Below are positions 19,300 through 64,000 of a DNA stretch of 64,000 nt, piece after piece. Numbering within the stretch: position 1 is the stretch's first letter; every line of letters starts with the position of its first letter. Made by a program: the position numbers and the translations under genes. Location: the NCBI GenBank assembly GCA_964187785.1, contig OZ076409.1, positions 6,512,001 through 6,576,000 of the forward strand. The letters are read 5' to 3'. The notes beneath the pieces are model-generated. The model worked only from the letters and a program-made list of their open reading frames with translations, was not told where the DNA came from and did not search any database. Origin of the DNA: Amphiscolops sp. MND2022 (taxonomy: Eukaryota).

Positions 19300-22200
19300 A
19301 GACGGACCTGTGGTCGCGCTGACTGCAGCCGTTGAAGAGCGCTTTGTGAACACGCTTATCTCAAGAGACGGTGAACCCGATTACGTCCCACTAACGACAA
19401 ATTTGGGACTCAAATACAAACGACGAAAGCTCTATTTTCCAATGGATTTCGGCGAACTTACATTAGATGGCCTTGTAGACACGCGAGCCCTATCGAGCAC
19501 GATCCCAGAAGCTGATCCACGTAAAATCCGACTATTAGCCCCTCAGTCAATAATCAAAGAGGGCCCAGCTCCTAACTTCCAAATTATGGTAGCTAATGGA
19601 CAGCTGGAAACTCCTAAGAGCACCGTCGAACTCAAATTCGAGGTTGGGATATCGACTTTCACGAGATTTTTGTAGTCATGGAAAAACTTACAAGTCCGTT
19701 AATTGGTCTCTCGTTCCTTCAACGGAAAAATACCATACTTGATATGAGAGAGGGAGTCCTAAATTTTCCGTTCTTTTCCATGCAATTGAAAACCGCCGAC
19801 CACAAGTACACTAATGTCATGGAACCTATTTGCGCTTGGGAGGACATAACTATTCCCCCCAATGATAGACATATGGTCTCCATGTGCTCACAAATGTATG
19901 AGGATACTAGCGTCACTGGAATTCTTCAACCGAGCACTGATTTTGCAGAAGATGGAGACATAACCTTCTGTGCTGCTCTAGTCACACTGACCCAAGGTCA
20001 GGTATCAATTCATGTGAATAACTTCGCGGATCAGCCTTACACCCTCAAACGAGGTTCGCACATTGCCAATTTCTCTGTCCTAACTCCAGAACAGTTGAAA
20101 TACGTTAAACCTATCGACCCAGTGACCACTTGGCATCTTCTACAGGATAATCCTGAAAATGCCGCCTACTATGCCAGCAGTCTAATTAAATCTCCGAAAG
20201 CTGAAGACACCACCAAAAACTATTGGTTTCCTACTCCAGAGCAACCAGGAGATCCTCAGACGCATACACCAATCCAACAAAGAAATCTCAGAGAATTGCA
20301 CAACCTGCAGGAACTAGAGAAACTCAACCCCCAGGATGACCCTGAGTCTAGGAAACAGTTTCTCGCCAACTTTGACTGGGCAGACTCGACGTTGAACCCA
20401 ACCGAAATTGCCCAAATCAAAGAGCTTCTTGTCGAATTCCACGACATTTTTGCACGACACCGCTTCGACATAGGAATGAATGAGAACTTCAAGGTAACAC
20501 TAACTCCTAAAGATGACTCCCCTGCCTACAGTCAAGGCTTACCTACACCGATCAATCTCAAGGAGGACATTCTCGTTGAATTAGCCCTTCTACACAGATA
20601 TGGGATCATAACAAGGCTCCCATTTTCCAAGTATGCAAGTCCCATCTTTGACCAGAAAAAACCAAATGGCAAATTACGACTCTTTGTCGATCTTTGCAAG
20701 ATCAATAATTTGATCTCTGATGATTATATCAATAACAATCATCCTGTGAGTACTTTAACGGACGCCGCACAGCACAAGGCACGCAAACGCCTGTTCTGCA
20801 TATTAGATTGTTTGCAGGCGTATCATTGTCTACAAATGGCGGACCAGAGGTCCATCGAGATGCTCGCATTCAACTTTGCTAGCAGGACATTCGCTTACCG
20901 CAGATTGGCGCAAGGTCTAAGAAGAGCTCTTTGTGCCTTCTCGAGTTTCATGCGTGAATATCTGGACAAGGTGATCAAAGCGGACCAATGCGCTCAGTAC
21001 GTAGATGATATTGGGATTGCTGCCAACAATGCTACGCAACTAATCAACAATTTGCGGGCTACCTTTGAATGCATTAGGACCCCAGGTCCCAAACTAACGA
21101 TGCATAAATGCCGTTTTGGAGCAAAGGATATTGACTTCCTGGGACGCACCATCAACCCTGAAGGATTGCGGCCACAACGACCCAGGGTCCAAAACTTCCT
21201 AGAAAAAACGAAATTCCCAAAATCCAAAAAAAGCACTCCAACGATACTTGGGCTTCCGAAACTATTATCGCAACTACATCCCAAGACTTTCAGAAAAACT
21301 GACCCTTTTTTCAAATGATTGAAAAATGATGCCAAAGTCCTGGTGACACCCGATCTGTTAGAACAATTCACCGAGATCAACAAAGCTCTTGACCGATGTT
21401 GTGAACTTGCACTCAAACAACCCCTGCCTAATAAACAAATAGCCCTAATGACAGACGCTAGTTTTTCGGCAGCAGGTTTCGCAGTTCTCATCGAGAATGA
21501 TCAAATGGAAAAATATTCATCAACGCGGAAAGCGTTCGCACCTGTAGCATATGGATCCAAGACCTTTATTCCCGCACAATTGAAAATGTCCATCTACGCC
21601 AAAGAGTTCTTAGCAATATTCTTTGCCTTCAAGGAATTTGGCCATATCTTTTGGGGGACTCCGAAACCGGTGATCATTCTGACAGACAACAAGTCGGTCA
21701 CTCGCTTTTTTCAAACTAAAACCATTCCACCAACCCTGTGGAACGCGTGTGACTACGTCATTCAGTTCAATTTCACAATCGCTCATATTCCTGGCAAAAA
21801 TAACACCGCCGCAGACTATCTGTCTTGTCTAGAAATTGGCCCTAAAGAGAAACTCATACTCCGCATACGGGAGGACATATCGACGACGCCCATCGAACTC
21901 AACGTCCAATCAGCTGGTGTCACTGAAGAGGACCAGATATTCTATACCGACGACGTTGAAGAAACTGAAGAACAGATCTGGCTGCGGAAGAAAAACGCCA
22001 AGTCACACCCGACAAACCAATTACCGGATATCACTCTAGGAAAACTCAGTGTCCACAACACTGTCTTCTCCCAACAGACAACTTTACAAAGACTATCAAA
22101 CTTCACCACCATGGCTATTGAACAACAAAATGATGTAGTTCTACATCAATTACGTCTCAAACTACAGAAAGAAGAATATTCTGAAACGATTTTACAGCAA

Positions 22201-23999
22201 GATCCCCGCTACCGTCATTACTGCAGTCAAATTGACCGTCTGTCCGTTCAGGATGACGTCATCACCAGAGATTATTATGACGAAACGGGAAGCGTTCAGT
22301 ACCGCCAGGCGATATTTTACCCAAACACCTCGTGTCAGATCTACTCCAATCACTACACGGAACAGCAAGCAAACATCCAGGGATTTCCAAGATGCTTTAC
22401 GAAATCCGTCAAAAATATTACTATCCTGGAATTGCAAAAATCGTCAAAAGTGGGTCCAAGGTACGAAATTTGTATCAAGGACAAAAGAATCAAAAACTCA
22501 TCAATCACACCAGAGCTACTCAATTTGCCTGAATGGGATCTTGGTCCAGAAGACGCTTTACAAATTGATCTGTTACCAAACCTCCCTCCGAGCGGGGGAT
22601 ATGAAAATATCATTACTGCTCTGGACGTCTTCTCCAGATACCTATTCGCCTACCCAGTAATTGATGCTTCGGCCTCAAGTACAGCAGAAGTACTTATTGA
22701 CATCATGACAAGACATGCCTACTTACCAACGACCCTCTTCACTGACAAAGGCACAGCATTTACGTCACGTCTGGGGGAAGGGATTGCCAAAAAATTGGGC
22801 ATCCAGATTAAATGCGCAACAACGAAACATCCTTAGACGATAGGCAAACTGGAGAGAAATCACGCTAGCCTTAAGGGCAACCTTAAAATGGCTTCCGGTG
22901 AATACTGTCGCCAATGGCACAAATATCTTTCATTGGCTGTCCTCAACTACAATACGACCTATCATTCGATTCTAGGATGCGAACCTTCCAGAATTTTCCA
23001 TGGAAGAGTACCGTACAACATTCTAGACTACCGGTCGGGCTCAAATCCCAACCCAAAATTCCCCCAACAACGGATTTTGCCGAGGAATCACAAAGACGTA
23101 CTCAAATTCTGATCGATAAAACGAAGAAAATATTCATCATGCAGTCGTACTTAAAGTACAAGGATTACTATGACCGCAAAACAAAGGCAGCCCGATTACA
23201 ACAGGGAGACTATTGTTTTATACTCCAGCCGCTAGCAGACCACCAGGTATCCAAAATTCCATTTCGAGAATTCCGGTGGATCGAGCCGTACGTCATTGAA
23301 AAAGGTTCACCAAACGAAAACTACATTGTCCGAAAACTCACCTCAAATAAAACGCAAATTTTACACCGGACACGTTTACGAAAATACACTCCGAATAAAG
23401 AATTACGTGACGTCCGCCCGGAAGGCAATTAGCAAGCTGATGATGAAATCGTCATACCACAAGACGATCTTTACATTATTTCTTGGGAAACGGAATTTGA
23501 TGATTTTCCTATGCATTCCGACCGAAAAAACACTTTCGATGATTCTCCAGTTGCTTCCGATCAACAGGATGCTATAATTACAGATTTGGACCTTCGGTCC
23601 ACTCGACGCGATCAAAATACTGACGACGCTATCACGGAGAAGCGTGAACAAGCAATCAACGATGCGGACCTTCGGTCCAATCGACTGCAGCAAGATACTA
23701 ATTCAGATGAGTCTGAGCAAATGGCTGAGCAGCCGGATGAAAATATGGATGACACGGACCTTAGGTCAAACCGACCGCAATCAACTACTGAGTCCGAAAT
23801 TGATGAAAAAACCTCCAAAAGCCCCTCAAAAGTGGGAAATTCCGACTTTTTGAATTCTAGAGGGAAGGATATAATCGTGCCCGATTTATCAGACAATGAA
23901 AGTGACGCAATGGTTGTAGAAAATGAAAGTCCCAGGGCAGGAAAAAAAATTCGACGTCCTAACCCTTCTCCAAACTTTACTGATGAGTTCAGATATTAG
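19300..23999 (+). pseudogene. pol: protease, RT, RNase H, integrase with GPY/F-like tail; disrupted
   Basis: LVDTRA (protease, mutated), YVDD, TDAS/KEFLA/TDNK/ADYLS, H..HPG..C zinc motif, IDLL/DVFSRY/TDKG/KLER, WIEPY; acidic C-terminal tail. Start coordinate approximate. Confidence 0.92.
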
Positions 24000-41502: not shown

Positions 41503-43806
41503 ATCTTCGATCACGTCTCATCTTTTCAATGCTAGTTAAACATGCTAGCCTAGGAATTTAACACTGACAATTTGACAATTCGTATTGTTTTCGTCTTGAA
41601 TGTATATGTGCACCTGTATATGTGCATTCGCCTCACTTGCCTTCCTTCTGTGTCAATTCTATTGTACTATTTTCTTTGTTCTGGAATCAATGATAGAAAG
41701 TCATTTGTACTGCCACATCCCGAAGGTTAATTGATCTCTTCTTTTTAGTCGACGCTTTTCTAGTGAAAAGTGCCCGACACTTACAGTGGCTAGTTTTTTT
41801 TCGTCAGACTACAATCCCACTCTGATTGGGCCACTTTCCTCTTACAATCGAAACCATTAGGGTCGCCAATGGGCGCAAGTGGTCGTCGCGACCTGTTGAA
41901 CAAAAAAATGATTGAATTGCAAAAACTATCTGAAGTCGTTACGAAATTAGATGCCCACTATGGTTTCTTTTTGTTGAAGAACTGCTTTAGTCTACCTAAA
42001 CAACTATACTTTCTTCGTACAAGCCATTGCTTTGAAGAGGTGGACCTCCTACAGCAGTATGATTCCATTATCCGCAAATCATTGTCCAAAATCTGCAATG
42101 TGAATTTTGATGAAAGCAGCTATACTCAAGCGATTCTCCCAGTCTTCAAAGGGGGCATAGGCATTCCATCGGCTTCCCAGATTGCTCTTCCTGTTTTTTA
42201 GCTTCAGCAACGGGCGCCAAACGTGTTTTGTCGTGTATCCTCCACGAAGACTATGTTGATGCATCGTTTGAAAAGGCTCTGGATTTATGGTTGACGAGGG
42301 CGAACCTGACAGAAGCACCGTCGGACTCCATCCAAAAACATTGGACCTCTCCTCTGAGCGATGCTACTTTTGATCAACTTATTTTAGACCTTGATGCGGA
42401 AAATGTCAAAGGCTGAATGCTTATCAAGACCCCTTTGGTTCAGCTTGGCTGAATGTTGTACCAAGCAAAAATCTCGGTCTGAAGTTGACAGATCAGCAAC
42501 TGCGCATCTCCTTATCCCTCCGCCTGGGTTCGAAAATTTGCGAGAAACACACTTGCCGCTGTGGTAAACTTGTCGAAGAGCCCGGACATCATGGTCTTTC
42601 CTGTGCCAGAAGCGCGGGACGTTTCTCGAGGCACCACAACCTCAATACAACCTCAACATCTTCGATCACGTCTCATCTTTTCAATGCTAGTTAAACATGC
42701 TAGCCTAGGAATTTAACACTGACAATTTGACAATTCGTATTGTTTTCGTCTTGAATGTATATGTGCACCTGTATATGTGCATTCGCCTCACTTGCCTTCC
42801 TTCTGTGTCAATTCTATTGTACTATTTTCTTTGTTCTGGAATCAATGATAGAAAGTCATTTGTACTGCAACATCCCGAAGGTTAATTGATCTCTTCTTTT
42901 TAGTCGACGCTTCTCTAGTGAAAAGTGCCCGACATTTACAGTGGCTAGTTTTTTATTCGTCAGACTACAATCCCACTCTGATTGGGCCACTTTTCTCTTA
43001 CAATCGAAACCATTAGGGTTGCCAATGGGCGCAAGTGGTCGTCGCGACCTCTTGAACAAAAAAATGATTGAATTGCAAAAACTATCTGAAGTCGTTACGA
43101 AATTAGATGCCCACTATGGTTTCTACTTGTTGAAGAACTGCTTTAGTCTACCTAAACTACTATACTTTCTTCGTACAAGCCATTGCTTTGAAGAGGTGGA
43201 CCTCCTACAGCAGTATGATTCCATTATCCGCAAATCATTGTCCAAAATCTGCAATGTGAATTTTGATGAAAGCAGCTATACTCAAGCGATTCTCCCAGTC
43301 TTCAAAGGGGGCATAGGCATTCCATTGGCTTCCCAGATTGCTCTTCCTGCTTTTTTAGCTTCAGCAACGGGCGCCAAACGTGTTTTGTCGTGTATCCTCC
43401 CCGAAGACTATGTTGATGCATCGTTTGAAAAGGCTCTGGATTTATGGTTGACGAGGGCGAACCTGACAGAAGCACCGTCGGACTCCATCCAAAAACATTG
43501 GACCTCTCCTCTGAGCGATGCTACTTTTGATCAACTTATTTTAGACCTTGATGCGGAAAATGTCAAAAGGCTGAATGCTTATCAAGACCCCTTTGGTTCA
43601 GCTTGGCTGAATGTTGTACCAAGCAAAAATCTCGGTCTGAAGTTGACAGATCAGCAACTGCGCATCTCCTTATCCCTCCGCCTGGGTTCGAAAATTTGCG
43701 AGAAACACACTTGCCGCTGTGGTAAACTTGTCGAAGAGCCCGGACATCATGGTCTTTCCTGTGCCAGAAGCGCGGGACGTTTCTCGAGGCACCACAACCT
43801 CAATAC
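41503..43806 (+). repeat. Tandem duplication, period about 1155 bp
   Basis: 41503-42648 and 42658-43806 are near-identical, with a 9-nt filler AACCTCAAC. Confidence 0.92.
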
Positions 43807-44563
43807 TCACGTGAAACAGGCGCTGAGTTCCATCAAAGTTCCCTCAATTTTGGAACTATATGGTCTGACCCGAACAGATGGAAAGCGCCCAGATGGAATT
43901 ACCCTAGCGCCCTGGGAGGAAGGCAAGCAATTAGTCTGGGATGTTACTTGTGTCGATCTTCTCGCCCCCAGTAGAATAGAGAACGGGTCTGTTGCCAACC
44001 CAGGCACAGCAGCGGAGGATGCAGAGGAATTGAAAACGGCTAACTACGTTTGTTTGACTGACAAAGGATACATCTTCCAACCATTAGCCTTTGAAATTCA
44101 GGGAGGAGTCGGACCTTCCACGTCTACCTTCTTGAAAAACCTCTGTAAAAAATTGTGCGTGTGCAATCAAGAAAATAGAGGGGTGGGCGGAAATAGGTCG
44201 AAGGAACGGGATCGAAAATCAGAGTTAGTCCTCAGGTCGTTATACCAAATTTTTTGAATGGGATCGAAACAACTCGGATCGAAATTTTTAAAACGTAGTC
44301 AGATATGTTCACATACCCCTAGTGCCCTAAATGCAGGAGCGAAGCGAAGCGGAGCGACGTGCCATTATGGCCATGCCTCACTTTTGCTACTTGGCGAAGG
44401 GAGCGAAGCGACCGAGCCATACAACAAACACGATAAAATTCGACCGCATTCCATTCGATCCCAGCAATTCGATCAAAAGGTTCGACCTCTGTCCTTTCGA
44501 CCAGAAAAATTCGACCTGTTTACAGCCACCCAAAATAGAGCTGGGTCGTTTTTCAGGCAGAGA
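43008..44563 (+). mobile_element. 5'-truncated CRE-like element (second family), RT thumb plus RLE domain
   Basis: PKLLYFLR, GGIGI, CRCG..HGLSC, RH, KRPDG, WDVTCVD; interrupted by a MITE at 44181, resuming as AGSFFRQR. Confidence 0.88.
44181..44531. mobile_element. MITE with 9-bp TSD (Mutator-like)
   Basis: TSD AAAATAGAG at 44172-44180 and 44532-44540; imperfect TIRs GGGTGG...AGGTCGAA. Confidence 0.85.
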
Positions 44564-45588: not shown

Positions 45589-45967
45589 ATGCATCTGTAC
45601 AACATAACGTTGCAGAGACCAACAGCTATAAATCATGCGGTCCATGGAAGTCTCTCCGGAACTAAGCAACAGGAGATCGCCGTGAGCAGAGGTAGAATTT
45701 TGGACATCTTGAAACCCGACCCTCAAACTGGAAAAGTTTACACATTGCTTTCTGTTGAAGTTTTTGGAATAATCAGATCTCTTAAAACATTCCGCTTGAC
45801 TGGAAGCACGAAAGATTATTTAGTTGTAGGATCAGACTCTGGAAGAATTGTTATCCTAGAGTATCATGGTGGAAAAAATATTCTTACAAGAGTTCATCAG
45901 GAGACATTCGGAAAGAGCGGATGCAGAAGAATTGTTCCTGGGCAATATTTGGCAATAGACCCCAAAG
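45589..45967 (+). CDS. SF3B3: Splicing factor 3B subunit 3, coding exon 1
   Basis: MHLYNITLQRPT...GSDSGRIVILEY...HQETFGKSGCRRIVPGQYLAIDPKG; GC donor. Confidence 0.95.
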
Positions 45968-47175
45968 GCAGGATTGGAAAATAATAATGGTGTCATATCA
46001 CAATTTCAATCACTGGAATAAAATGAGGTAATGATCAAAATGGTATAGTGATTCCAGAAAGTTCCCGATTAACCTGGCGAATTCCTCGTGCAAAATCTTT
46101 CAAACAGATCACTCAGTTTGAAGACTACTCTATAATCATAGATGTTCATTACACTTGCGATAAGCAAGTGTTATGGGAAAGTGCGGTTGCTTTTTTTTCC
46201 TGTGCGTCAACTCTCATTTCACGCGACAAGTCGCACATTTCACGCGCTCGTGGTCTAGTGGTAAGATGTTTGTTTTTCAACCCAGAGGTTTCGTGTTCGA
46301 ACCCGTGGGTATGCGCTCATTTTCTTTACAAGTATTCCAAAGCAGAAGGTTCTCACTTTTTTGGGCACTATGAGATTTTTCGGCTTTGTGCGACTTTTTC
46401 GAAATTTTTGAAATGTCCCCAAAGAGTCCTCCTTTCAATTTTTTTTTGATAATTTGCAACAGAACGAGTATTAAAAATCGCAAAGGGTCCCTTTTTCAGA
46501 ATTTTCGGCACTATGAGACTGTTCAAAATTCTCATTTTTTGTTTTCGAAAATTTTTTAAAGACTCCCTTCTCATTTTTTTTCAAAAATTTTTAATGTCTA
46601 CAGAGGGTCCACCCTTCTCTTTGTTTGATATCTTGCAACAGAACGAATGTTGAAAAATCTCAAAGGGTCCCTTTTCCAGATTTTTCGGCACTATGAGACT
46701 GTCATTTAAATCTCATTTTTTGTGTTTTTTCGAAATTTTTTTATTAAAGACTCCAAAGAGTCCCCCTTCAATTTTTTGAAATTTTGCAACAGTTTCCGGC
46801 ATTGTGACATTTTTCCAAAGGGATAATTTTCGTGTTAAAATTAGGTTTTCTCAGGTCCGGCACGCTATATCCGATTTCTGTTGTTTTAAAAGACAGGTGT
46901 TTTTTCTATGCGACTTTTTTAAAAAATTTGTTTCACCGAAGCCCCTCCTCAACTTTTGCCAGAAACGAAACGTTTTGCGAGAGTTAAGGACTCCTCAATC
47001 TTTTCGGCACTATGCGACTTACTGGAAACCATCAAAAATATTTTCGAAAAATTTTTTTCTCAATTTTTTGTTTTTTAAAGGTTTTTGAGAAAGATGGGTT
47101 TTTTGCTGTTTTCAGTTGGGGAAGAATGGTTTTCGAGACTTATGCGTATCCTTTCGGGTATTTTTTGGTGCTGTA

Positions 47176-50100
47176 TATTGTTAAATTGATGAAATTTTAA
47201 TGTCCTTTTACCCTTGGTTCTCCTTATGATATTACTCATTTGGTTTTCTTCAAAAGTTCGCAAGTGTTTGCGAAGCACGGCTTCGCCTCTGTGTTGAACA
47301 ATTTCCGTGACTAGGCATTCCGTGCATTCTAGGCAAAATGCGAAGATAAGTATCAGAATAACCAATCGAAAACCACGCATTTGCCACAATATCGTAGCAG
47401 TATGGCATTGGCATAGGAATGGATTGGAAAATGGGTACAAAAACACCGAACAGTGAGTTTGCACAAACAGTAAGATGATTTTTGAACAACTCGGGATGTA
47501 ATTCTTTAGTACCTTTCTGTAGATTGGCATCAAAGCAACCACTGATTTTGTTGATTAGTCTAGACGGATTGCTCAAATATCGGTGCTGTAGTGTAATTAT
47601 CAGCATGGCAGGTCTCAACTTGGAAGAATAGGTTTGAATCCTTTCAGCACTAAATCTTTGCCTTAGTGTCGTAGTGGGTAGCTGTAGCATCCAGCTGAGC
47701 TACCTGAAATGTTTCTTTTTTGAAAACGTTTCTTTTTGAATAACAGAAAAGACCTCAAACAATTGGTAGAATATGAAATAATAAACTTATTGTAAAGAAA
47801 TCGAAATTAATGGAGAAAGAGAGAGAACACTATATTATTGTAAGGGCGATAGCTGGCAGCTTACCATATAATAAGTCTAAATGACTTATGCAAGCATAAG
47901 TAGTTGTTTCCAATTTCACAAACAAATTTGAAAAAGAAACAAGCCGAGACCGGCCCAAGTCGGCGCCATATCCAAGGCTCAAAAATAGCAAAAAGACTTC
48001 CAAGTGTCAAGTATTCGTTTACAGTAGTCGAAAATCGAAAATTTTTCGATTTTTTTTTTGAAAAAATTACATACTAAAAAAATGGACCGAGTGGCGCGCC
48101 GGGGCTCGCTACTGCGAGCCCCTGGCGCGCTAACGTCTCACAATGCCGAAAAACTGAAAGGGGGACCCTTTGAGGTTTTTCAACATCCATTCTGTCGCAA
48201 AACATGAAAAAATTGAAGAAAAATTTTTTTTTCATTTTCGGGATAAAATCTCACAATGCCGAAAAAAACTGAAAGGAGGAACCCTTTGGGATTTTCCAAC
48301 ATCCATTCTGTCGCAAAACATCAAAAAAATGCAGGGGGGACCCTTTGAGGAAAAAAAATTTCGAAAAAAAAATCCGGAAAAAAATGTCTCGCAGTGCCGA
48401 AAAAAATTGAAAGGGGGGACTCTTTGGTCTCGCCCGGTATGATATGTTACGCGGAAAAACAGGTAAAACCATTTTGATTCAGTTCGCTAGGCCAAATGGT
48501 GCTATTTGACACCATAAAATTTTGTAGAACTTTTAAGAACTATTTTGGTCAGTTCGTGTGGATAGAAAAAAAAAGAGTCACTATAATAGTCGCGTTTCAC
48601 TTCATGAAGCGCCGACTAAAAAGACACCGGTTTATTTGAAGCGGAAATCACGCCAGGTACTAGCTACTTGGATAGGAACTGCATTTGACTCTTTTTCCAG
48701 ATGAATTTTCAATCGACTTTTGAATACATGTAGGCTCACACTTTGATCTCGCATATGTAGCGGTAGTGAGTTCCACTTCAGTGAAGTACAACGATGAGCA
48801 AGTATTGTTAAATTGATGAAATTTTAATGTCCTTTTACCCTTGGTTCTCCTTATGATATTACTCATTTGGTTTTCTTCAAAAGTTCGCAAGTGTTTGCGA
48901 AGCACGGCTTCGCCTCTGTGTTGAACAATTTCCGTGACTAGGCATTCCGTGCATTCTAGGCAAAATGCGAAGATAAGTATCAGAATAACCAATCGAAAAC
49001 CACGCATTTGCCACAATATCGTAGCAGTATGGCATTGGCATAGGAATGGATTGGAAAATGGGTACAAAAACACCGAACAGTGAGTTTGCACAAACAGTAA
49101 GATGATTTTTGAACAACTCGGGATGTAATTCTTTAGTACCTTTCTGTAGATTGGCATCAAAGCAACCACTGATTTTGTTGATTAGTCTAGACGGATTGCT
49201 CAAATATCGGTGCTGTAGTGTAATTATCAGCATGGCAGGTCTCAACTTGGAAGAATAGGTTTGAATCCTTTCAGCACTAAATCTTTGCCTTAGTGTCGTG
49301 TAGTGGGTAGCTGTAGCATCCAGCTGAGCTACCTGAAACGTTTCTTTTTTGAAAACGTTTCTTTTTGAATAACAGAAAAGACCTCAAACAATTGGTAGAA
49401 TATGAAATAATAAACTTATTGTAAAGAAATCGAAATTAATGGAGAAAGAGAGAGAACACTATATTATTGTAAGGGCGATAGCTGGCAGCTTACCATATAA
49501 TAAGTGTAAATGACTTATGCAAGCATAAGTAGTTGTTTCCAATTTCACAAACAAATTTGAAAAAGAAACAAGCCGAGACCGGCCCAAGTCGGCGCCATAT
49601 CCAAGGCTCAAAAATAGCAAAAAGACTTCCAAGTGTCAAGTATTCGTTTACAGTAGTCGAAAATCGAAAATTTTTCGAATTTTTTTTTGAAAAAATTACA
49701 TACTAAAAAAATGGACCGAGTGGCGCGCCGGGGCTCGCTACCGCGAGCCCCTGGCGCGCTAACGTCTCACAATGCCGAAAAACTGAAAGGGGGGACCCTT
49801 TGAGGTTTTTCAACATCCATTCTGTCGCAAAACATGAAAAAATTGAAGAAAAAATTTTTTTTCATTTTCGGGATAAAATCTCACAATGCCGAAAAAAACT
49901 GAAAGGAGGAACCCTTTGGGATTTTCCAACATCCATTCTGTCGCAAAACATCAAAAAAAATGCAGGGGGGACCCTTTGAGGAAAAAAAAATTCGAAAAAA
50001 AAATCCGAAAAAAAATGTCTCGCAGTGCCGAAAAAAATTGAAAGGGGGGACTCTTTCGTCTCGCCCGGTATGATATGTTACGCGGAAAAACAGGTAAAAC

Positions 50101-50433
50101 CATTTTGATTCAGTTCGCTAGGCCAAATGGTGCTATTTGACACCATAATATTTTGTAGAACTTTTAAGAACTATTTTGGTCAGTTCGTGTGGATAGAAAA
50201 AAAAAGAGTCACTATAATAGTCGCGTTTCACTTCATGAAGCGCCGACTAAAAAGACACCGGTTTATTTGAAGCGGAAATCACGCCAGGTACTAGCTACTT
50301 GGATAGGAACTGCATTTGACTCTTTTTCCAGATGAATTTTCAATCGACTTTTGAATACATGTAGGCTCACACTTTGATCTCGCATATGTAGCGGTAGTGA
50401 GTTCCACTTCAGTGAAGTACAACGATGAGCAAG
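47176..50433 (+). repeat. Tandem duplication, period about 1627 bp, inside SF3B3 intron 1
   Basis: 47176-48802 and 48803-50433 are near-identical; each carries a minus-strand Helentron-like copy (about 47938-48622 and 49567-50252). Confidence 0.93.
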
Positions 50434-50615
50434 AAGTTGAAACAGATGAAAAATTACCCATATAGATAACTTGATTCATAAAAACGATGAAAGAATTGTT
50501 AAAAATGAAACAGCAACTTTTGCCAATGATTATTTTCTTGCATAAGTTTTTCACCTGCATAATGTTTTGAAAAGATTGTATCGATTCCAATCCTGGTCGT
50601 CTAATTGGCGTGAAG

Positions 50616-50806
50616 GTCGTGCAATAATGGTGAGTGCAGTAGAAAAACAGAAGCTATGTTACATCATGAACAGAGACGCGGAAGCCAGACTTACCATCTC
50701 TTCTCCTTTGGAGGCCCACAAGGCCAATACTTACACGTACTACACCATAGGCGTCGATGTCGGCTTTGACAACCCTCTTTTCGCCTGTCTCGAAATGGAC
50801 TACGAG
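50616..50806 (+). CDS. SF3B3: SF3B3 coding exon 2
   Basis: RAIMVSAVEKQKLCYIMNRD...ISSPLEAHK...DVGFDNPLFACLEMDYE; AAG acceptor, GC donor. Confidence 0.92.
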
Positions 50807-51282
50807 GCACAGACCGCTTTTCGTTGCCCACTAATCAAATTGCTCAAAATTTAAGTGTTCTTGAGAAAATGAACCAGTACTTTCAAATGACAAAAGATGC
50901 TTGAAATTTCCCTGTTTTTCATGATCCAGGGCAAGATTTTACCGAAGATCTATTAGAAAGCGCCCAGTTTTTTGTCTTTATTTTCAACTTCATATTAACC
51001 AGTGATGTTGTCAAATCTTTTCAACAGAAAGAAGAAAATAGTTTTAAAAAAGTAAATACTAAAAAAATTGTTAAATAAATGGTTCAAATGAACATCACTG
51101 ATATTAAGCTATTTTTCCCCTATTGCAAAATCGATTGCAAATCAAAAGTTATTTCATTATCGGGTTTTCCTGAGTGATACCAAATTTGTCTGAGCTCCCA
51201 AAAAATTGAGTTTTAAAAAATCAAAGTGATGTTGGACATGAATTTTTGACGTTGCCCAGCGAAATTGCGTCTGTGGTTCAAG

Positions 51283-51415
51283 GAAACAGACTCAAGTGCC
51301 GCTGCCGAAGCTCCTTCGCAGTTCCTCACTTATTACGAGTTGGACCTGGGACTTAACCACGTGGTGAGGAAGTACAATGAAGCTTTGGACGATACTGCCA
51401 ACATGCTCATCGCAG
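51283..51415 (+). CDS. SF3B3: SF3B3 coding exon 3
   Basis: ETDSS...LTYYELDLGLNHVVRKY...NMLIA; AAG acceptor, GT donor. Confidence 0.9.
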
Positions 51416-52725
51416 GTTGGTGCAAGTTTGTACTACTTAGTACAGTCGAACTCGGATGAAAGAAACACGGATAAAGGAAACATTTGGATATAAGAAACGT
51501 TTTCACTCACCCGCTTTTATGCGAGACAAACATTCTATGCTAATAGGACAACTGATAAAAGAAACTATGGATAAAAGAAACTTAGAGAGTTTCTTATATC
51601 CGAGTTTGACTAAGTTGCTAGCTTTATTACACCCTCGGTCATCATGCTTATTGTCTCGTGTTCATTCAAGTGTCAAAGTTACGCTTAGATGTTAAAATAT
51701 GATTTCGTAACGACGCAAACTTTTTTAGTTGATTATGAGAAACGTACAAAGGTATCAAAACTCAAGAGACACTCGATTTGTTTAACGAAAACTCTCAAAG
51801 CGCAGGGTCTTTTGAAATGCAGTTGAATCGGCCTAATTCGTATCGCTAAGGGCCGAATAAAATAATACGAATGATGAGAATTAACGCATGATATTCCTTT
51901 GGTTTTTGCAAAATGGGGGTCTCGGATACATACGAATTAAACGAAGAATTCGAATTAACAGGAGTTGACTGTATTCAAAGTTTCAATAGTTTCCAAGTCT
52001 AATCAAGGTATATACGGTATTTTATATGAAAAAATAGGCGCAGTGTTTCAACTGGTACTTTTTGTTTGATTTCAAAAATAATACCTTGTAATTCTGATCG
52101 AAATTTGAAAAGTTTTCCTCCTGGGACTTTTGTTTGAATTAATTTTGTTGAAATTTATTGCGATTCAAATTTTTGTCAGTGAAATCGAATGTCTTTAGGT
52201 TTTAGGTACCATACTGTAATTCCTCTGAAATTTTTGATTTCTTGTTCAGACGCAAGCTCTTGAACTGATAACGACAGGGTTGTCATGTTTTAAAAAGTTT
52301 CAAAACAGCATCGTAAAAAACTTTTAAAACATGCGAAAATGTTTTTTTTATATTATGAACTCCTCTCAAATTCAACATTGACACATTTTCATGAGTGAAC
52401 TTACATAAGAGAATAAAAAAGTCTTCTAGCGGACTTGAGCGGCAATTCTCGGTTGGAATGAACTATGGGAATCTCCGATCCCATCTTGGAGTTCAAAAGG
52501 CCGGCAAACTGGCGTTTCTTTATATGCAGTTTAATCTTTATTTTTTATAACTTCAAGAAGTTAACTCTTAAAGTTTTTTTTAAATTTTCATTTAGATTTT
52601 TGTGAAAAAATGAAACGAAAAAAATTTTTCAGAAAAAAGGTCTTTTATCCCCAACCCAGGATAGCGGATTCTGTGAAACGTTTATACCATTTCTTTCCTC
52701 AACTCTCACGGCTGGTTTGTTTCAG

Positions 52726-52934
52726 TTCCCGGTGGAAACGATGGCCCCAGTGGGGTTCTAGTCTGCTCGGAGAATTACATCACGTACAAGAACCTGGGAG
52801 ACCAGCCAGACATCAGAGTTCCCATCCCCAGACGAAGGAATGACCTGGACGACCCGGAGAGGGGACTGCTAATTGTGTGCTCGGCCACCCACAAAACCAG
52901 ATCCATGTTTTTCTTTCTTGTCCAAACTGAACAG
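52726..52934 (+). CDS. SF3B3: SF3B3 coding exon 4
   Basis: VPGGNDGPSGVLVCSENYITYKN...PIPRRRNDLDDPER...FFFLVQTEQ; AG/GT boundaries. Confidence 0.95.
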
Positions 52935-54737: not shown

Positions 54738-55007
54738 GGCGATGTGTTCAAAATCACGTTGGAAGTAGACGAAGATATGGTGACAGAGCTGAAACTGAAG
54801 TATTTCGACACAGTTCCCGTGGCTGCCAGTATGGTTGTGCTCAAAAGCGGCTTCCTGTTCGTGGCGTCAGAGTTCGGCAACCACTACTTGTACCAGATCG
54901 CCTACCTCGGCAACAACGACGACGAGATGGAATTCTCCAGTCAGATGCCTCTAGAGGAAGGAGAAACGTTCTTCTTCGCACCCAGGGGGCTGAAAAATCT
55001 TGTGCAG
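54738..55007 (+). CDS. SF3B3: SF3B3 coding exon 5
   Basis: GDVFKITL...LKYFDTVP...GFLFVASEFGNHYLYQI...LKNLVQ. Confidence 0.95.
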
Positions 55008-56383: not shown

Positions 56384-56513
56384 GTTGAGGAGATAGACTC
56401 GCTGTCTCCCATCATCAATTGTCAGATTGCGGAACTGTCCAATGACGACACGCCCCAGATCTACGCTGCTTGTGGCCGCGGTGCCAGGTCTTCCTTCCGC
56501 ATCCTCAAACATG
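56384..56513 (+). CDS. SF3B3: SF3B3 coding exon 6
   Basis: VEEIDSLSPI...TPQIYAACGRGARSSFRILKHG. Confidence 0.95.
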
Positions 56514-59262: not shown

Positions 59263-59475
59263 GTCTGGAAGTGTCGGAGATGGCGGTGTCGGAACTGCCT
59301 GGCTCCCCCAACGCCGTGTGGACTGTGAAGAAGAAGGCGGACGATGACTATGACTCCTACATCATCGTGTCTTTCGTCAACGCCACTCTCGTTCTGTCCA
59401 TCGGAGAAACTGTCGAAGAAGTCACCGATTCCGGCTTCCTTGGAACCACGCCCACTCTCTCCTGCTCTCTCATTG
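59263..59475 (+). CDS. SF3B3: SF3B3 coding exon 7
   Basis: [22 protein letters not shown]...[34 protein letters not shown]. Confidence 0.96.
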
Positions 59476-61162: not shown

Positions 61163-61342
61163 GCGAGGATGCACTTCTGCAGGTGTACCCCAACGGCATC
61201 CGCCACATCCGGGCAGACAGACGGGTGAACGAGTGGAAGACGCCCGGCAAGCGCAGCATCATCGCCTGTGCGGTCAATCAGAGACAGGTGTGCATCGCCC
61301 TCTACGGCGGGGAACTCGTCTACTTCGAAATGGACCCCAGTG
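61163..61342 (+). CDS. SF3B3: SF3B3 coding exon 8
   Basis: [29 protein letters not shown]...[22 protein letters not shown]. Confidence 0.96.
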
Positions 61343-62298: not shown

Positions 62299-62406
62299 GC
62301 CAACTGAACGAGTACACGGAGCGGAAGGATCTACAGACTGACGTCATCTGCATGTGTTTGCCCACAGTGCCAGAAGGAGAGACCAGATCCAGGTTCCTTT
62401 CAGTCG
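62299..62406 (+). CDS. SF3B3: SF3B3 coding exon 9 (gene continues beyond the window)
   Basis: GQLNEYTERK...VPEGETRSRFLSVG; phases are consistent across all nine exons (1813 nt). Confidence 0.93.
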
Positions 62407-62431
62407 GTTAGTTAGAAGGTGTCAGTGTCAG

Positions 62432-63337: not shown

Positions 63338-64000
63338 AATATTTCTGCGTAAGCTGGAATACACCCAGTTTTTTAAAGAACACTACCTGCAGATCGAGTC
63401 TCAATTGGTCCTAAATATCCGGCAATATGGGGCTCAAAAAGATATGTTGTTAAATTTTCGACAATTCGAGGCTCGAGGTGTTCTTAATTTCTTGAAATCG
63501 GAAGCTTTTCACTACCACATGAATTCGGATACGAGTGATCAGAATGTGGGCCGCTCTATTCGAGCTCTTTATGATTTTGGTTGGCCCTTTATGATTTTGG
63601 TTAGGAAAAATCACATCAGAATATCACCCTACAAGAATATAAAATTGACTACCAATATAACTCAATTGACTATATTAGTCCTTCTGAAATTGGAGGTGCT
63701 GATGTTTTTGTTGATGTAATTTAAGTTGTTTCCAACTGATTTTTAATTTGAGCCTCGGTGGTGTTTTTTAAAAACTGTTCGTAATTTTTTGACTTTCTGA
63801 GGATGGTGTTCCTATAACGGTGTTCTTATAAAACAGTTTATCATTGTAACGCGACCCGTCCTACCTTTTTTTCGTAACCAAAATATTGTTACTGTTTGTT
63901 TTTTAATATTTCTGCTTTAGCAGGAATGTTATTGTAACCTCAAAGTTGGTCCTTTTTTTTTTCAGTCGTCAAATTTCGTCCTACTGAATAATTCAGATAT

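Follow-up and report, generated by a model that had tools for sequence, protein, structure and literature searches.

Introns with complementary ends in the SF3B3 gene of Amphiscolops sp. MND2022, and their probable origin as insertions

The window analyzed here is a 64,000-nt stretch of Amphiscolops sp. MND2022 DNA (contig OZ076409.1, positions 6,512,001 to 6,576,000) that carries the first nine exons of the SF3B3 gene from position 45589 onward; the rest of the gene was mapped in 60 kb fetched downstream. Four of its introns (1, 2, 12 and 13) have ends that are complementary to each other, begin with GC or GG, are flanked by a short direct repeat and are single-copy at those ends; introns 1 and 2 are absent from three relatives, and the joined exons form an intact open reading frame (ORF). 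Judged from these sequences, the four introns are probably lineage-specific insertions with inverted-repeat ends that landed at AG|G sites and are spliced out together with one copy of the repeat. What we infer from this is gain here as opposed to loss elsewhere, removal by the spliceosome, and a helping role for the paired ends.

Junctions and end pairing in SF3B3

Exons were placed using tblastn with an annelid SF3B3 (P0055) together with a junction scan, giving 17 exons and 16 introns on the + strand, the introns being GT-AG (11 of 16), GC-AG (4 of 16) and GG-AG (1 of 16). The joined exons encode an intact SF3B3 of 1207 aa (ending ...RTRFAF*), and this is the sole full SF3B3 locus in the 1.07 Gb assembly, which otherwise holds one stop-bearing fragment (G000:C1:~4.58 Mb); the intron segments must therefore be removed precisely. 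Exon 1 (45589..45967, 99% identical to the relative P0001 described below) runs from the ATG at 45589 to ...CCC AAA G and is followed by intron 1 (45968..50615; 4648 nt), which lies in phase 1 in Gly127 and reads aaag|GCAGGA...GTGAAG|gtc, with AAGG at both junctions. Exon 2 (50616..50806; GT CGT GCA ATA ATG ... GAC TAC GAG) is followed by intron 2 (50807..51282; 476 nt), in phase 0 after ...MDYE, which reads gag|GCACAG...TTCAAG|gaa with AGG repeated and occurs as a single copy in the genome. Because AAGG (intron 1) or AGG (intron 2) is repeated at both ends, placement of the junctions is ambiguous: the scan found seven placements for intron 1 and four for intron 2 that give the same protein, and GC..AG is in both cases the only one with known splice dinucleotides. 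The positions that the first-pass annotation had proposed for the two introns are borne out, with GC..AG as the likely borders.

A second pair of junctions for intron 2, which that annotation had allowed for and which would add 13 aa, is disfavored by two relatives, P0001 and L070, that read ...DPKGRAIMV... and ...MDYEETDSS... without insertion. An assembly error at the GC of intron 1, which it had also considered, is unlikely since the same donor (GGC AGG) is found in two further contigs, from which P0243 and P0244 (both ending ...DPKGRIGK) are called. These calls come from a comparison with ENA proteins, which are plain ORF calls and among which three of the 18 window ORFs were found by exact look-up, namely a wrong-frame, GTG-start ORF over exon 5, one inside intron 1, and one running from exon 1 into intron 1 (...DPKGRIGK). 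The latter two lie on two contigs of 223,723 and 399,463 bases; intron 1 and its GC donor are to this extent confirmed at sequence level in contigs from the same or a very close genome. A search with the ORF of exon 6 gave four matches, none of them close.

GC-AG introns otherwise have a strong 5' consensus (AG|GCAAGT), a pyrimidine tract and a YAG acceptor. Those at issue here do not: as the earlier reading had it, the donors of introns 1 and 2 are weak (AAG|GCAGGA and GAG|GCACAG), the acceptors are AAG, and a pyrimidine tract is lacking. Pyrimidine content across -33 to -4 before the junction is 0.53-0.60, and the donors GCAGGA, GCACAG and GCAGAG, with the acceptors GAAG, CAAG and CAAG, depart from both the strong consensus and YAG.

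The end-to-end complementarity first noticed in introns 1 and 2 stands in the sequence at the coordinates given for it. In intron 1 the 5' arm CAGGATTGGAA (45969..45979, intron positions +2 to +12) is exactly reverse-complementary to the 3' arm TTCCAATCCTG (50585..50595), which ends 20 nt before the junction; the 20-nt tail contains a branch-point-like CTAAT (50601..50605), the second A of which is 11 nt from the junction; the tail of intron 13 has this motif too. Intron 2 has a composite stem of 17 bp, whose 5' arm (50808..50826) consists of CACAGAC, a bulged C, GC, one U and TTTCGTTG, and whose 3' arm (51257..51275) consists of CAGCGAAA, TT, GC and GTCTGTG and ends 7 nt before the junction. 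The outer helix joins CACAGAC (50808-50814) to GTCTGTG (51269-51275), and the inner one, which includes one G.U, joins TTTCGTTG (50819-50826) to CAGCGAAA (51257-51264); the GC/GC pair separates the two. This stem is present in both the minimum-free-energy and the centroid fold of the full intron; folding of intron 2 as a whole is not better than that of shuffles (z=-1.2).

Each intron's first and last 40 nt were scored for pairing against a background of 3745 random intronic 40-mer pairs. For intron 1 the pairing free energy (dG) is -18.2 (P=0.040), and the longest perfect run, 11, has P=0.0016; for intron 2 dG is -25.6 (P=0.003), and the longest run, 7, has P=0.13. If the 5' arm is anchored at +1/+2, chance would give an exact 11-mer about 1.4e-5 times. 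The GT-AG introns 3-8 reach dG values of -6.7 to -11.9 and runs of 4-6, which agrees with the weaker and shorter matches originally described for them.

Two further introns of this architecture (12 and 13) lie beyond the window. Intron 13 (G000:C1:6584812-6602367; 17.5 kb) reads aaag|GCAGAGTTGTTACGATT...AATCGTAACAACTCTG-AACCTAATCGTCAAG|gtc and is GC..AAG, with a 16-nt perfect complement from +2 followed by CTAAT and AAG|GTC. Intron 12 (G000:C1:6581915-6584494) reads acag|GGATTATTAA...TTAATAATCC-CCGAATGCCGACAG|ttt and is GG..CAG with a 10-nt pairing; it can be written solely as GG..AG or AG..AC. Reduced to its architecture, intron 1 is aaag|G-CAGGATTGGAA...TTCCAATCCTG-20 nt-AAG|gtc, and intron 13 has the same layout, aaag|G-CAGAGTTGTTACGATT...AATCGTAACAACTCTG-15 nt-AAG|gtc; intron 2 is gag|G-CACAGAC...GTCTGTG-7 nt-AAG|gaa, and intron 12 is acag|GGATTATTAA...TTAATAATCC-14 nt-CAG|ttt. 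Four introns thus have terminal inverted repeats (TIRs), three of them as perfect runs (11, 16 and 10 nt) and intron 2 as the composite 17 bp stem; all four 5' arms start at +1/+2, and all four 3' arms are subterminal by 7-20 nt.

Within SF3B3, paired ends occur in 4/5 non-GT introns vs 0/11 GT-AG introns (Fisher P=0.0027). The split is blurred by intron 11, a GC-AG intron with a normal TTTTGCAG acceptor and without pairing, and by the GT-AG intron 10 (G000:C1:6577694-6580858), whose ends have a dG of -21.5 (P=0.012) with a longest run of 6; its end-to-end duplex consists of short G.U-rich runs (AACACC/GGTGTT). The 5' consensus of U12-type (minor) introns is /RTATCCTT, and it is absent from the paired-end introns, which start GCAGGATT, GCACAGAC, GGATTATT and GCAGAGTT. 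Taken together, these observations support the view that the paired-end introns of SF3B3 are a distinct kind of intron. To this extent the initial proposal of a class of non-canonical introns is supported; a repeated introner family, which it had also raised, falls with the single-copy ends described below.

Clathrin heavy chain was sampled as a second gene (23.7 kb, reference residues ~268-1579). Of its 17 introns 16 are GT-AG and one is GC-AG (aag|GCTAGA...CTGCAG), and in none of the 17 is there a terminal perfect complement of more than 6. With this gene added, paired ends are found in 4/6 non-GT vs 0/27 GT-AG introns (P=0.0004); gene against gene, the counts are 4/16 in SF3B3 vs 0/17 in clathrin heavy chain (P=0.044). 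Judged from this one further gene, the paired-end class is not common genome-wide, and SF3B3 may be enriched in it. Across the two genes 27/33 introns are GT-AG and 6/33 have non-GT donors, far above the roughly 1% that is usual in animals. A second kind of GC-AG intron, with an AG|GCTA start, a pyrimidine-rich CAG acceptor and no end pairing, is represented by SF3B3 intron 11 (G000:C1:6580999-6581680) and clathrin intron 17 (G000:C8:23672763-23675441).

An altered U1 small nuclear RNA was considered as an explanation for the odd donors and rejected, as the U1 5' end is canonical in 4/6 sampled copies, which start ATACTTACCTG (21 matches lie above the family cut-off). The other two sampled copies have the variant 5' ends ATATTTAAACCTG and ATACTTACTTG (L092, G000:C13:49602042-49602081; L093, G000:C7:41249350-41249389).

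Empty sites in relatives and the origin of the inserts

Since the ENA calls are plain ORFs, P0001 and P0002 are single ORFs across the sites of both introns 1 and 2. P0001 is identical to the window protein at 114/118 positions over residues 118-235 (4 differences in 235) and stops just after exon 3; P0002 is identical at 105/118 positions to the window and 86% identical to P0001, likewise crosses both sites, and stops after exon 3. A metagenome contig (L070; 105/118 identical, with third codon positions 46/117 identical) gives the empty sites as DNA, CCTAAAG|GACGAGC and TATGAA|GAGACAG, and a GT intron 3 comes after them. None of the three relatives (two uninterrupted ORFs and one DNA contig) has introns 1 and 2, and all of them have intron 3; this fits the insertion origin suggested in the first-pass annotation. 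The empty sites of L070 have one AAAGG and one GAAGAG, and the filled sites have AAGG twice and AGG twice; GT-AG introns, too, show repeats of 2-5 nt. P0001 is the closest of the three to the window, and L070 and P0002 are each ~89% identical to the window and ~90% to each other. Gain on the window's branch needs two events, and loss needs two or three double losses.

The ends of these introns are not members of a repeat family. An own-genome search (1.07 Gb) with intron 2, with the first 173 nt of intron 1 (its single-copy 5' core, 45968..46140) and with its last 138 nt (the single-copy 3' core, 50478..50615) returns these sequences alone. The interior of intron 1 (46143..50477) is repetitive and appears to be a later accretion: one repeat family begins at ~46143 (1176 first-look candidates; the 39 other scored copies are 90-94% identical), and a second (270 candidates) extends to ~50480. 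Nested high-copy repeats start at +176 in intron 1, at +25 in intron 12 (about 2000 candidates) and at +48 in intron 13, and the outer 24 nt of intron 12 and 47 nt of intron 13 are not included in the repeat copies scored; with unique ends and nested repeats beginning close inside them, the original inserts must have been short. The 16-nt arm of intron 13 has three exact copies in the genome, two of which are its own arms; at <=1 mismatch the 16-mer has 61 matches vs 12 for a control, and 38/61 are one variant, mostly in a few tandem-like clusters. At 7/7 other intron 13-arm loci inspected the partner arm is absent. The 3' pattern common to introns 1 and 13 has 35 genome matches vs 35 for its control. 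A repeated introner, TIR or miniature inverted-repeat transposable element (MITE) family was rejected on the single-copy ends, the near-chance counts and the missing partner arms; reading of the sequence beside the arms likewise gave no hAT-type 8-bp duplication.

The favored account would run as follows. Short inserts of roughly 60-480 bp with inverted-repeat ends would have landed in coding sequence at AG|G sites, leaving flanking direct repeats of 3-4 nt (AAGG in intron 1, AGG in intron 2, ACAG in intron 12 and AAGG in intron 13), and removal of the insert with one repeat copy would restore the ORF exactly. The odd dinucleotides would then be by-products of insertion: the donor G would close the left repeat and the C would open the insert, which begins CA(G/C), and the AAG acceptor would be the right-hand copy of the exon's own AAG. 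Removal would most likely be carried out by the ordinary U2-type spliceosome, which in this genome appears tolerant of GC donors, with the end helix holding the 5' junction 7-20 nt from the 3' junction whatever the length of the intron, next to CTAAT in introns 1 and 13. Introns 1 and 13 would later have grown to 4.6 and 17.5 kb through nested repeats. The arms are perfect, though the nested repeats are 85-94% identical to their genomic copies; the neutral chance of zero change in 74 arm bases (introns 1, 12 and 13) is 0.05-0.005 at 4-7% divergence. That pairing replaces the splice signals, as first supposed, may be entertained as a conjecture, and a helix from +2 would cover the site of U1. 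As for the autoregulation also suggested at the outset, weak introns in SF3B3's own transcript would give positive, not homeostatic, feedback.

Several points weigh against this account. A helix starting at +2 should hinder access of U1 and U6, and U1 is canonical. The 3' arm is subterminal with a tail of 7-20 nt, which a simple TIR element does not explain. The repeat family that defines introners and MITEs is missing, and the paired-end type is represented by 0/17 introns in clathrin heavy chain. The junction repeats of 3-4 nt are no longer than those at GT-AG introns, and as the latter are also repeat-flanked, the argument from target-site duplication (TSD) comes down to the comparison of filled with empty sites. 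Intron 1 is not brand new, since its boundary is copied at 88% identity in the stop-bearing fragment mentioned above. That fragment (L031, G000:C1:4578995-4582171) is located on the same chromosome, 2 Mb upstream; at ~1481-1740 it copies the 3' half of exon 1 and the first part of intron 1 (AAAGGCAGCATTGG...), and the copy carries indels and stop codons. The last point, and the strongest in favor of retention, is that the site of intron 2 is also occupied in vertebrates and in P0141, which favors an old intron lost in the relatives unless there was parallel gain.

Comparison of intron positions gives a divided answer. Neither the 7 other eukaryotic loci compared nor the ORF fragments P0141 and P0155 have an intron at the Gly127 site of intron 1; vertebrate models lack one there too and point to an intron ~17 nt downstream of it. 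At the site of intron 2 (phase 0 after MDYE) P0141 has an intron and so do vertebrates, as read from exon-skipping isoforms in parrot, a read-through in trout and a model in sturgeon. For introns 12 and 13, vertebrate exon boundaries from shortened isoforms are too noisy to place the sites.

Alternative explanations

The possibility that old introns were kept here and lost in the relatives (cDNA-mediated conversion, for instance, could have removed the adjacent introns 1 and 2 together), with splice signals decayed and pairing compensating, must be taken seriously but is unlikely. It gains from the shared site of intron 2 and from the persistence of perfect stems against the neutral expectation given above, and loss of neighboring introns in one event is a known pattern. 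Against it, two or three independent double losses are needed, the site of intron 1 is unmatched in the other loci compared, and a perfect 16-nt complement is unlikely to arise via point mutation.

A different question is raised by introns 1 and 13, which share the 7-nt target AAAG|GTC, a GCAG start, and tails with CTAAT followed by AAG. Their arms are identical at 7/11 positions and the other four are compensated on the opposite arm (P=0.0076), and upstream of the 3' arm 15/18 positions match (shuffle P=0.04); similarity of the 5' ends beyond the arms is marginal (P=0.22). The two look related, as judged from this one pair of introns, and could be two copies of one rare element or the result of reverse-splicing spread in the transcript. 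The latter reading, under which an excised intron would have reverse-spliced into another AAAG|GTC site of its own transcript, its interior then diverging while compensation kept the ends, is distinctly unlikely. It draws on all the similarities just listed and on the chance-level frequency of the shared 3' pattern in the rest of the genome; against it, resemblance beyond the ends is marginal, a pair of related transposon copies would give the same picture, and introns 2 and 12 do not fit. Broader still is a scheme in which the end helix, and not U1/U2AF signals, would set the junctions, and introns of this kind would spread by RNA re-insertion into AAAG|GTC (introns 1 and 13 being sisters), their stems kept by compensation; it appears improbable.

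Non-spliceosomal removal that recognizes the helix, a route suggested for nonconventional introns in euglenids, is quite improbable. The euglenid introns are described as having variable borders, no pyrimidine tract, a helix close to the ends (often CAG/CTG) that draws the junctions together, and junction repeats, and as being unique sequences of very different lengths, all of which the SF3B3 introns share; the euglenid pairing is placed at +4..+6 / -8..-6, and the products are reported to be circular (PMC11282704, PMC3935182, PMC4770533). The SF3B3 introns differ in belonging to another kingdom, in having borders that can be written G(C/G)..AG, and in a 3' arm that lies 7-20 nt from the junction. 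In favor of such a pathway, the borders are non-canonical or ambiguous, the pyrimidine tract is lacking, pairing begins at +1/+2, and CAG/CTG are the first pairs in introns 1 and 13; against it, all four introns can be written with G(C/G)..AG borders, CTAAT is present in the tails of introns 1 and 13, and 27/33 introns examined in this animal are ordinary GT-AG. To our knowledge no such pathway is known in animals.

Excision at the DNA level of internal eliminated sequences, with P0001 as the processed form, is very improbable. The combination of inverted-repeat ends with a short direct repeat that persists in one copy is reminiscent of ciliate eliminated sequences, and interrupted (P0243, P0244) and uninterrupted (P0001) forms both occur among ENA contigs. 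However, P0001 differs at 4/235 residues and third codon positions of L070 are saturated (46/117), so that these represent other lineages and not processed copies, and we know of no precise intragenic DNA elimination in animals. Finally, ordinary GC-AG introns with coincidental terminal complementarity are almost certainly not the explanation: unpaired GC donors do exist (SF3B3 intron 11 and clathrin intron 17, AG|GCTA... with a normal acceptor), but exact runs of 11, 16 and 10 nt at +1/+2 are expected 1e-5, 1e-8 and 6e-5 times, and four such introns are found in one gene against 0/27 GT-AG introns.

Insertion with inverted-repeat ends, the reading preferred here, has partial counterparts elsewhere. 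A review characterizes transposon-derived introns by their TIRs, a 'gc or gt' donor that comes from the element, and a 3' AG that comes from the TSD (PMC11282704), and a survey of 835 animal and land-plant genomes reports introners in only two animal groups (PMC9860276). On this reading the SF3B3 introns would be like the introners of Micromonas, Aureococcus, Polarella and others in coding insertion, inverted-repeat ends, a short flanking duplication and restoration of the frame. In introners as these two sources present them, the insert supplies one splice site and the 3' AG comes from the duplication, as would be the case in SF3B3 (PMC11282704, PMC9860276). Introners, however, occur as many near-identical copies, whereas the paired ends of SF3B3 are single-copy and their 3' arm is subterminal.

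The closest animal case is the larvacean Fritillaria borealis, where non-GT/AG sites are likewise reported to coincide with the TIRs of inserted DNA (10.1101/2025.08.15.670264; PMC11282704). There, according to the report, canonical introns lie at conserved and odd ones at lineage-specific positions, and the U1 5' end is unchanged (10.1101/2025.08.15.670264). It differs in that >90% of its introns are given as non-canonical, mostly AG-AC/AG-AT and from repeated non-autonomous transposons (10.1101/2025.08.15.670264). In the present animal, by contrast, GT-AG introns are in the majority (27/33), and the odd ones are GC/GG..AG and unique.

The new introns of Daphnia pulex, for which a model of double-strand-break repair is described, combine lineage-specific presence or absence with short direct repeats, both of which are found in SF3B3 (PMC4202315). 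Parallel gains at the same site are reported there as frequent (43/90 new introns; PMC4202315), and an event of this type at an AG|G site would explain why intron 2 occupies an old intron position. End pairing has no part in that model as its main text sets it out, where the terms 'inverted repeat', 'secondary structure' and 'GC-AG' are absent (PMC4202315).

The origin of new spliceosomal introns in animals is poorly documented, and this locus offers both filled and empty sites for introns 1 and 2 in an essential single-copy gene, with four introns of one architecture beside twelve ordinary ones that serve as internal controls. Whether an end helix enables splicing of weak GC..AAG junctions over 0.5-17 kb can be put directly to the test here. 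A need for the pairing would mean that structure can substitute for splice signals in a normal animal spliceosome; were the pairing only a relic, these introns would still record how insertions into exons become harmless.

Remaining features of the gene and the window

Downstream of intron 2, exon 3 (51283..51415, placed by junction scan) is followed by the canonical intron 3 (51416..52725; cag|GTTGGT...TTTCAG), also present in L070 (gcag|GTAATAG). Exons 4-9 (52726-52934, 54738-55007, 56384-56513, 59263-59475, 61163-61342 and 62299-62406) are separated by the canonical GT-AG introns 4-8, and the canonical intron 9 starts at 62407 and continues to the window end at 64000; all lie on the + strand, and the gene runs on to G000:C1:~6607165.

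The interior of intron 1 contains a tandem duplication with a period of ~1.63 kb (window 47100-50260), 99-100% identical over most of its length. Each tandem copy includes a tRNA-like stretch (47582-47652 and 49209-49279; Rfam tRNA, 36 bits); an Rfam scan of 45900-51500 gave these two, two sub-threshold matches and nothing else, and ARAGORN called no tRNA genes in the intron 1 region. The 10-mer AATAATGGTG occurs both near the 5' end of intron 1 (45983-45992) and at the start of exon 2 (50623-50632; background P=0.007). Its exon 2 copy reads ATG|GTGAGT, a perfect donor-like sequence, near the intron that vertebrate models place ~17 nt downstream. At matching offsets in intron 2 and exon 3 there is a shared ACAGAC, a 6-mer that is not significant.

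In a quick tree the SF3B3 protein falls outside arthropods, with its place among other animals unresolved, and has a long branch of 0.68 changes per site (best identity 72%); P0001, P0002 and L070 are its only close group. Upstream of the gene, in window positions 1-45500, no host gene was recognised; without a library search having been made, the many long ORFs on both strands resemble mobile-element remnants, examples being ORFs of 566 aa at 19618-21315, 505 aa at 21319-22833 and 455 aa at 42890-44254.

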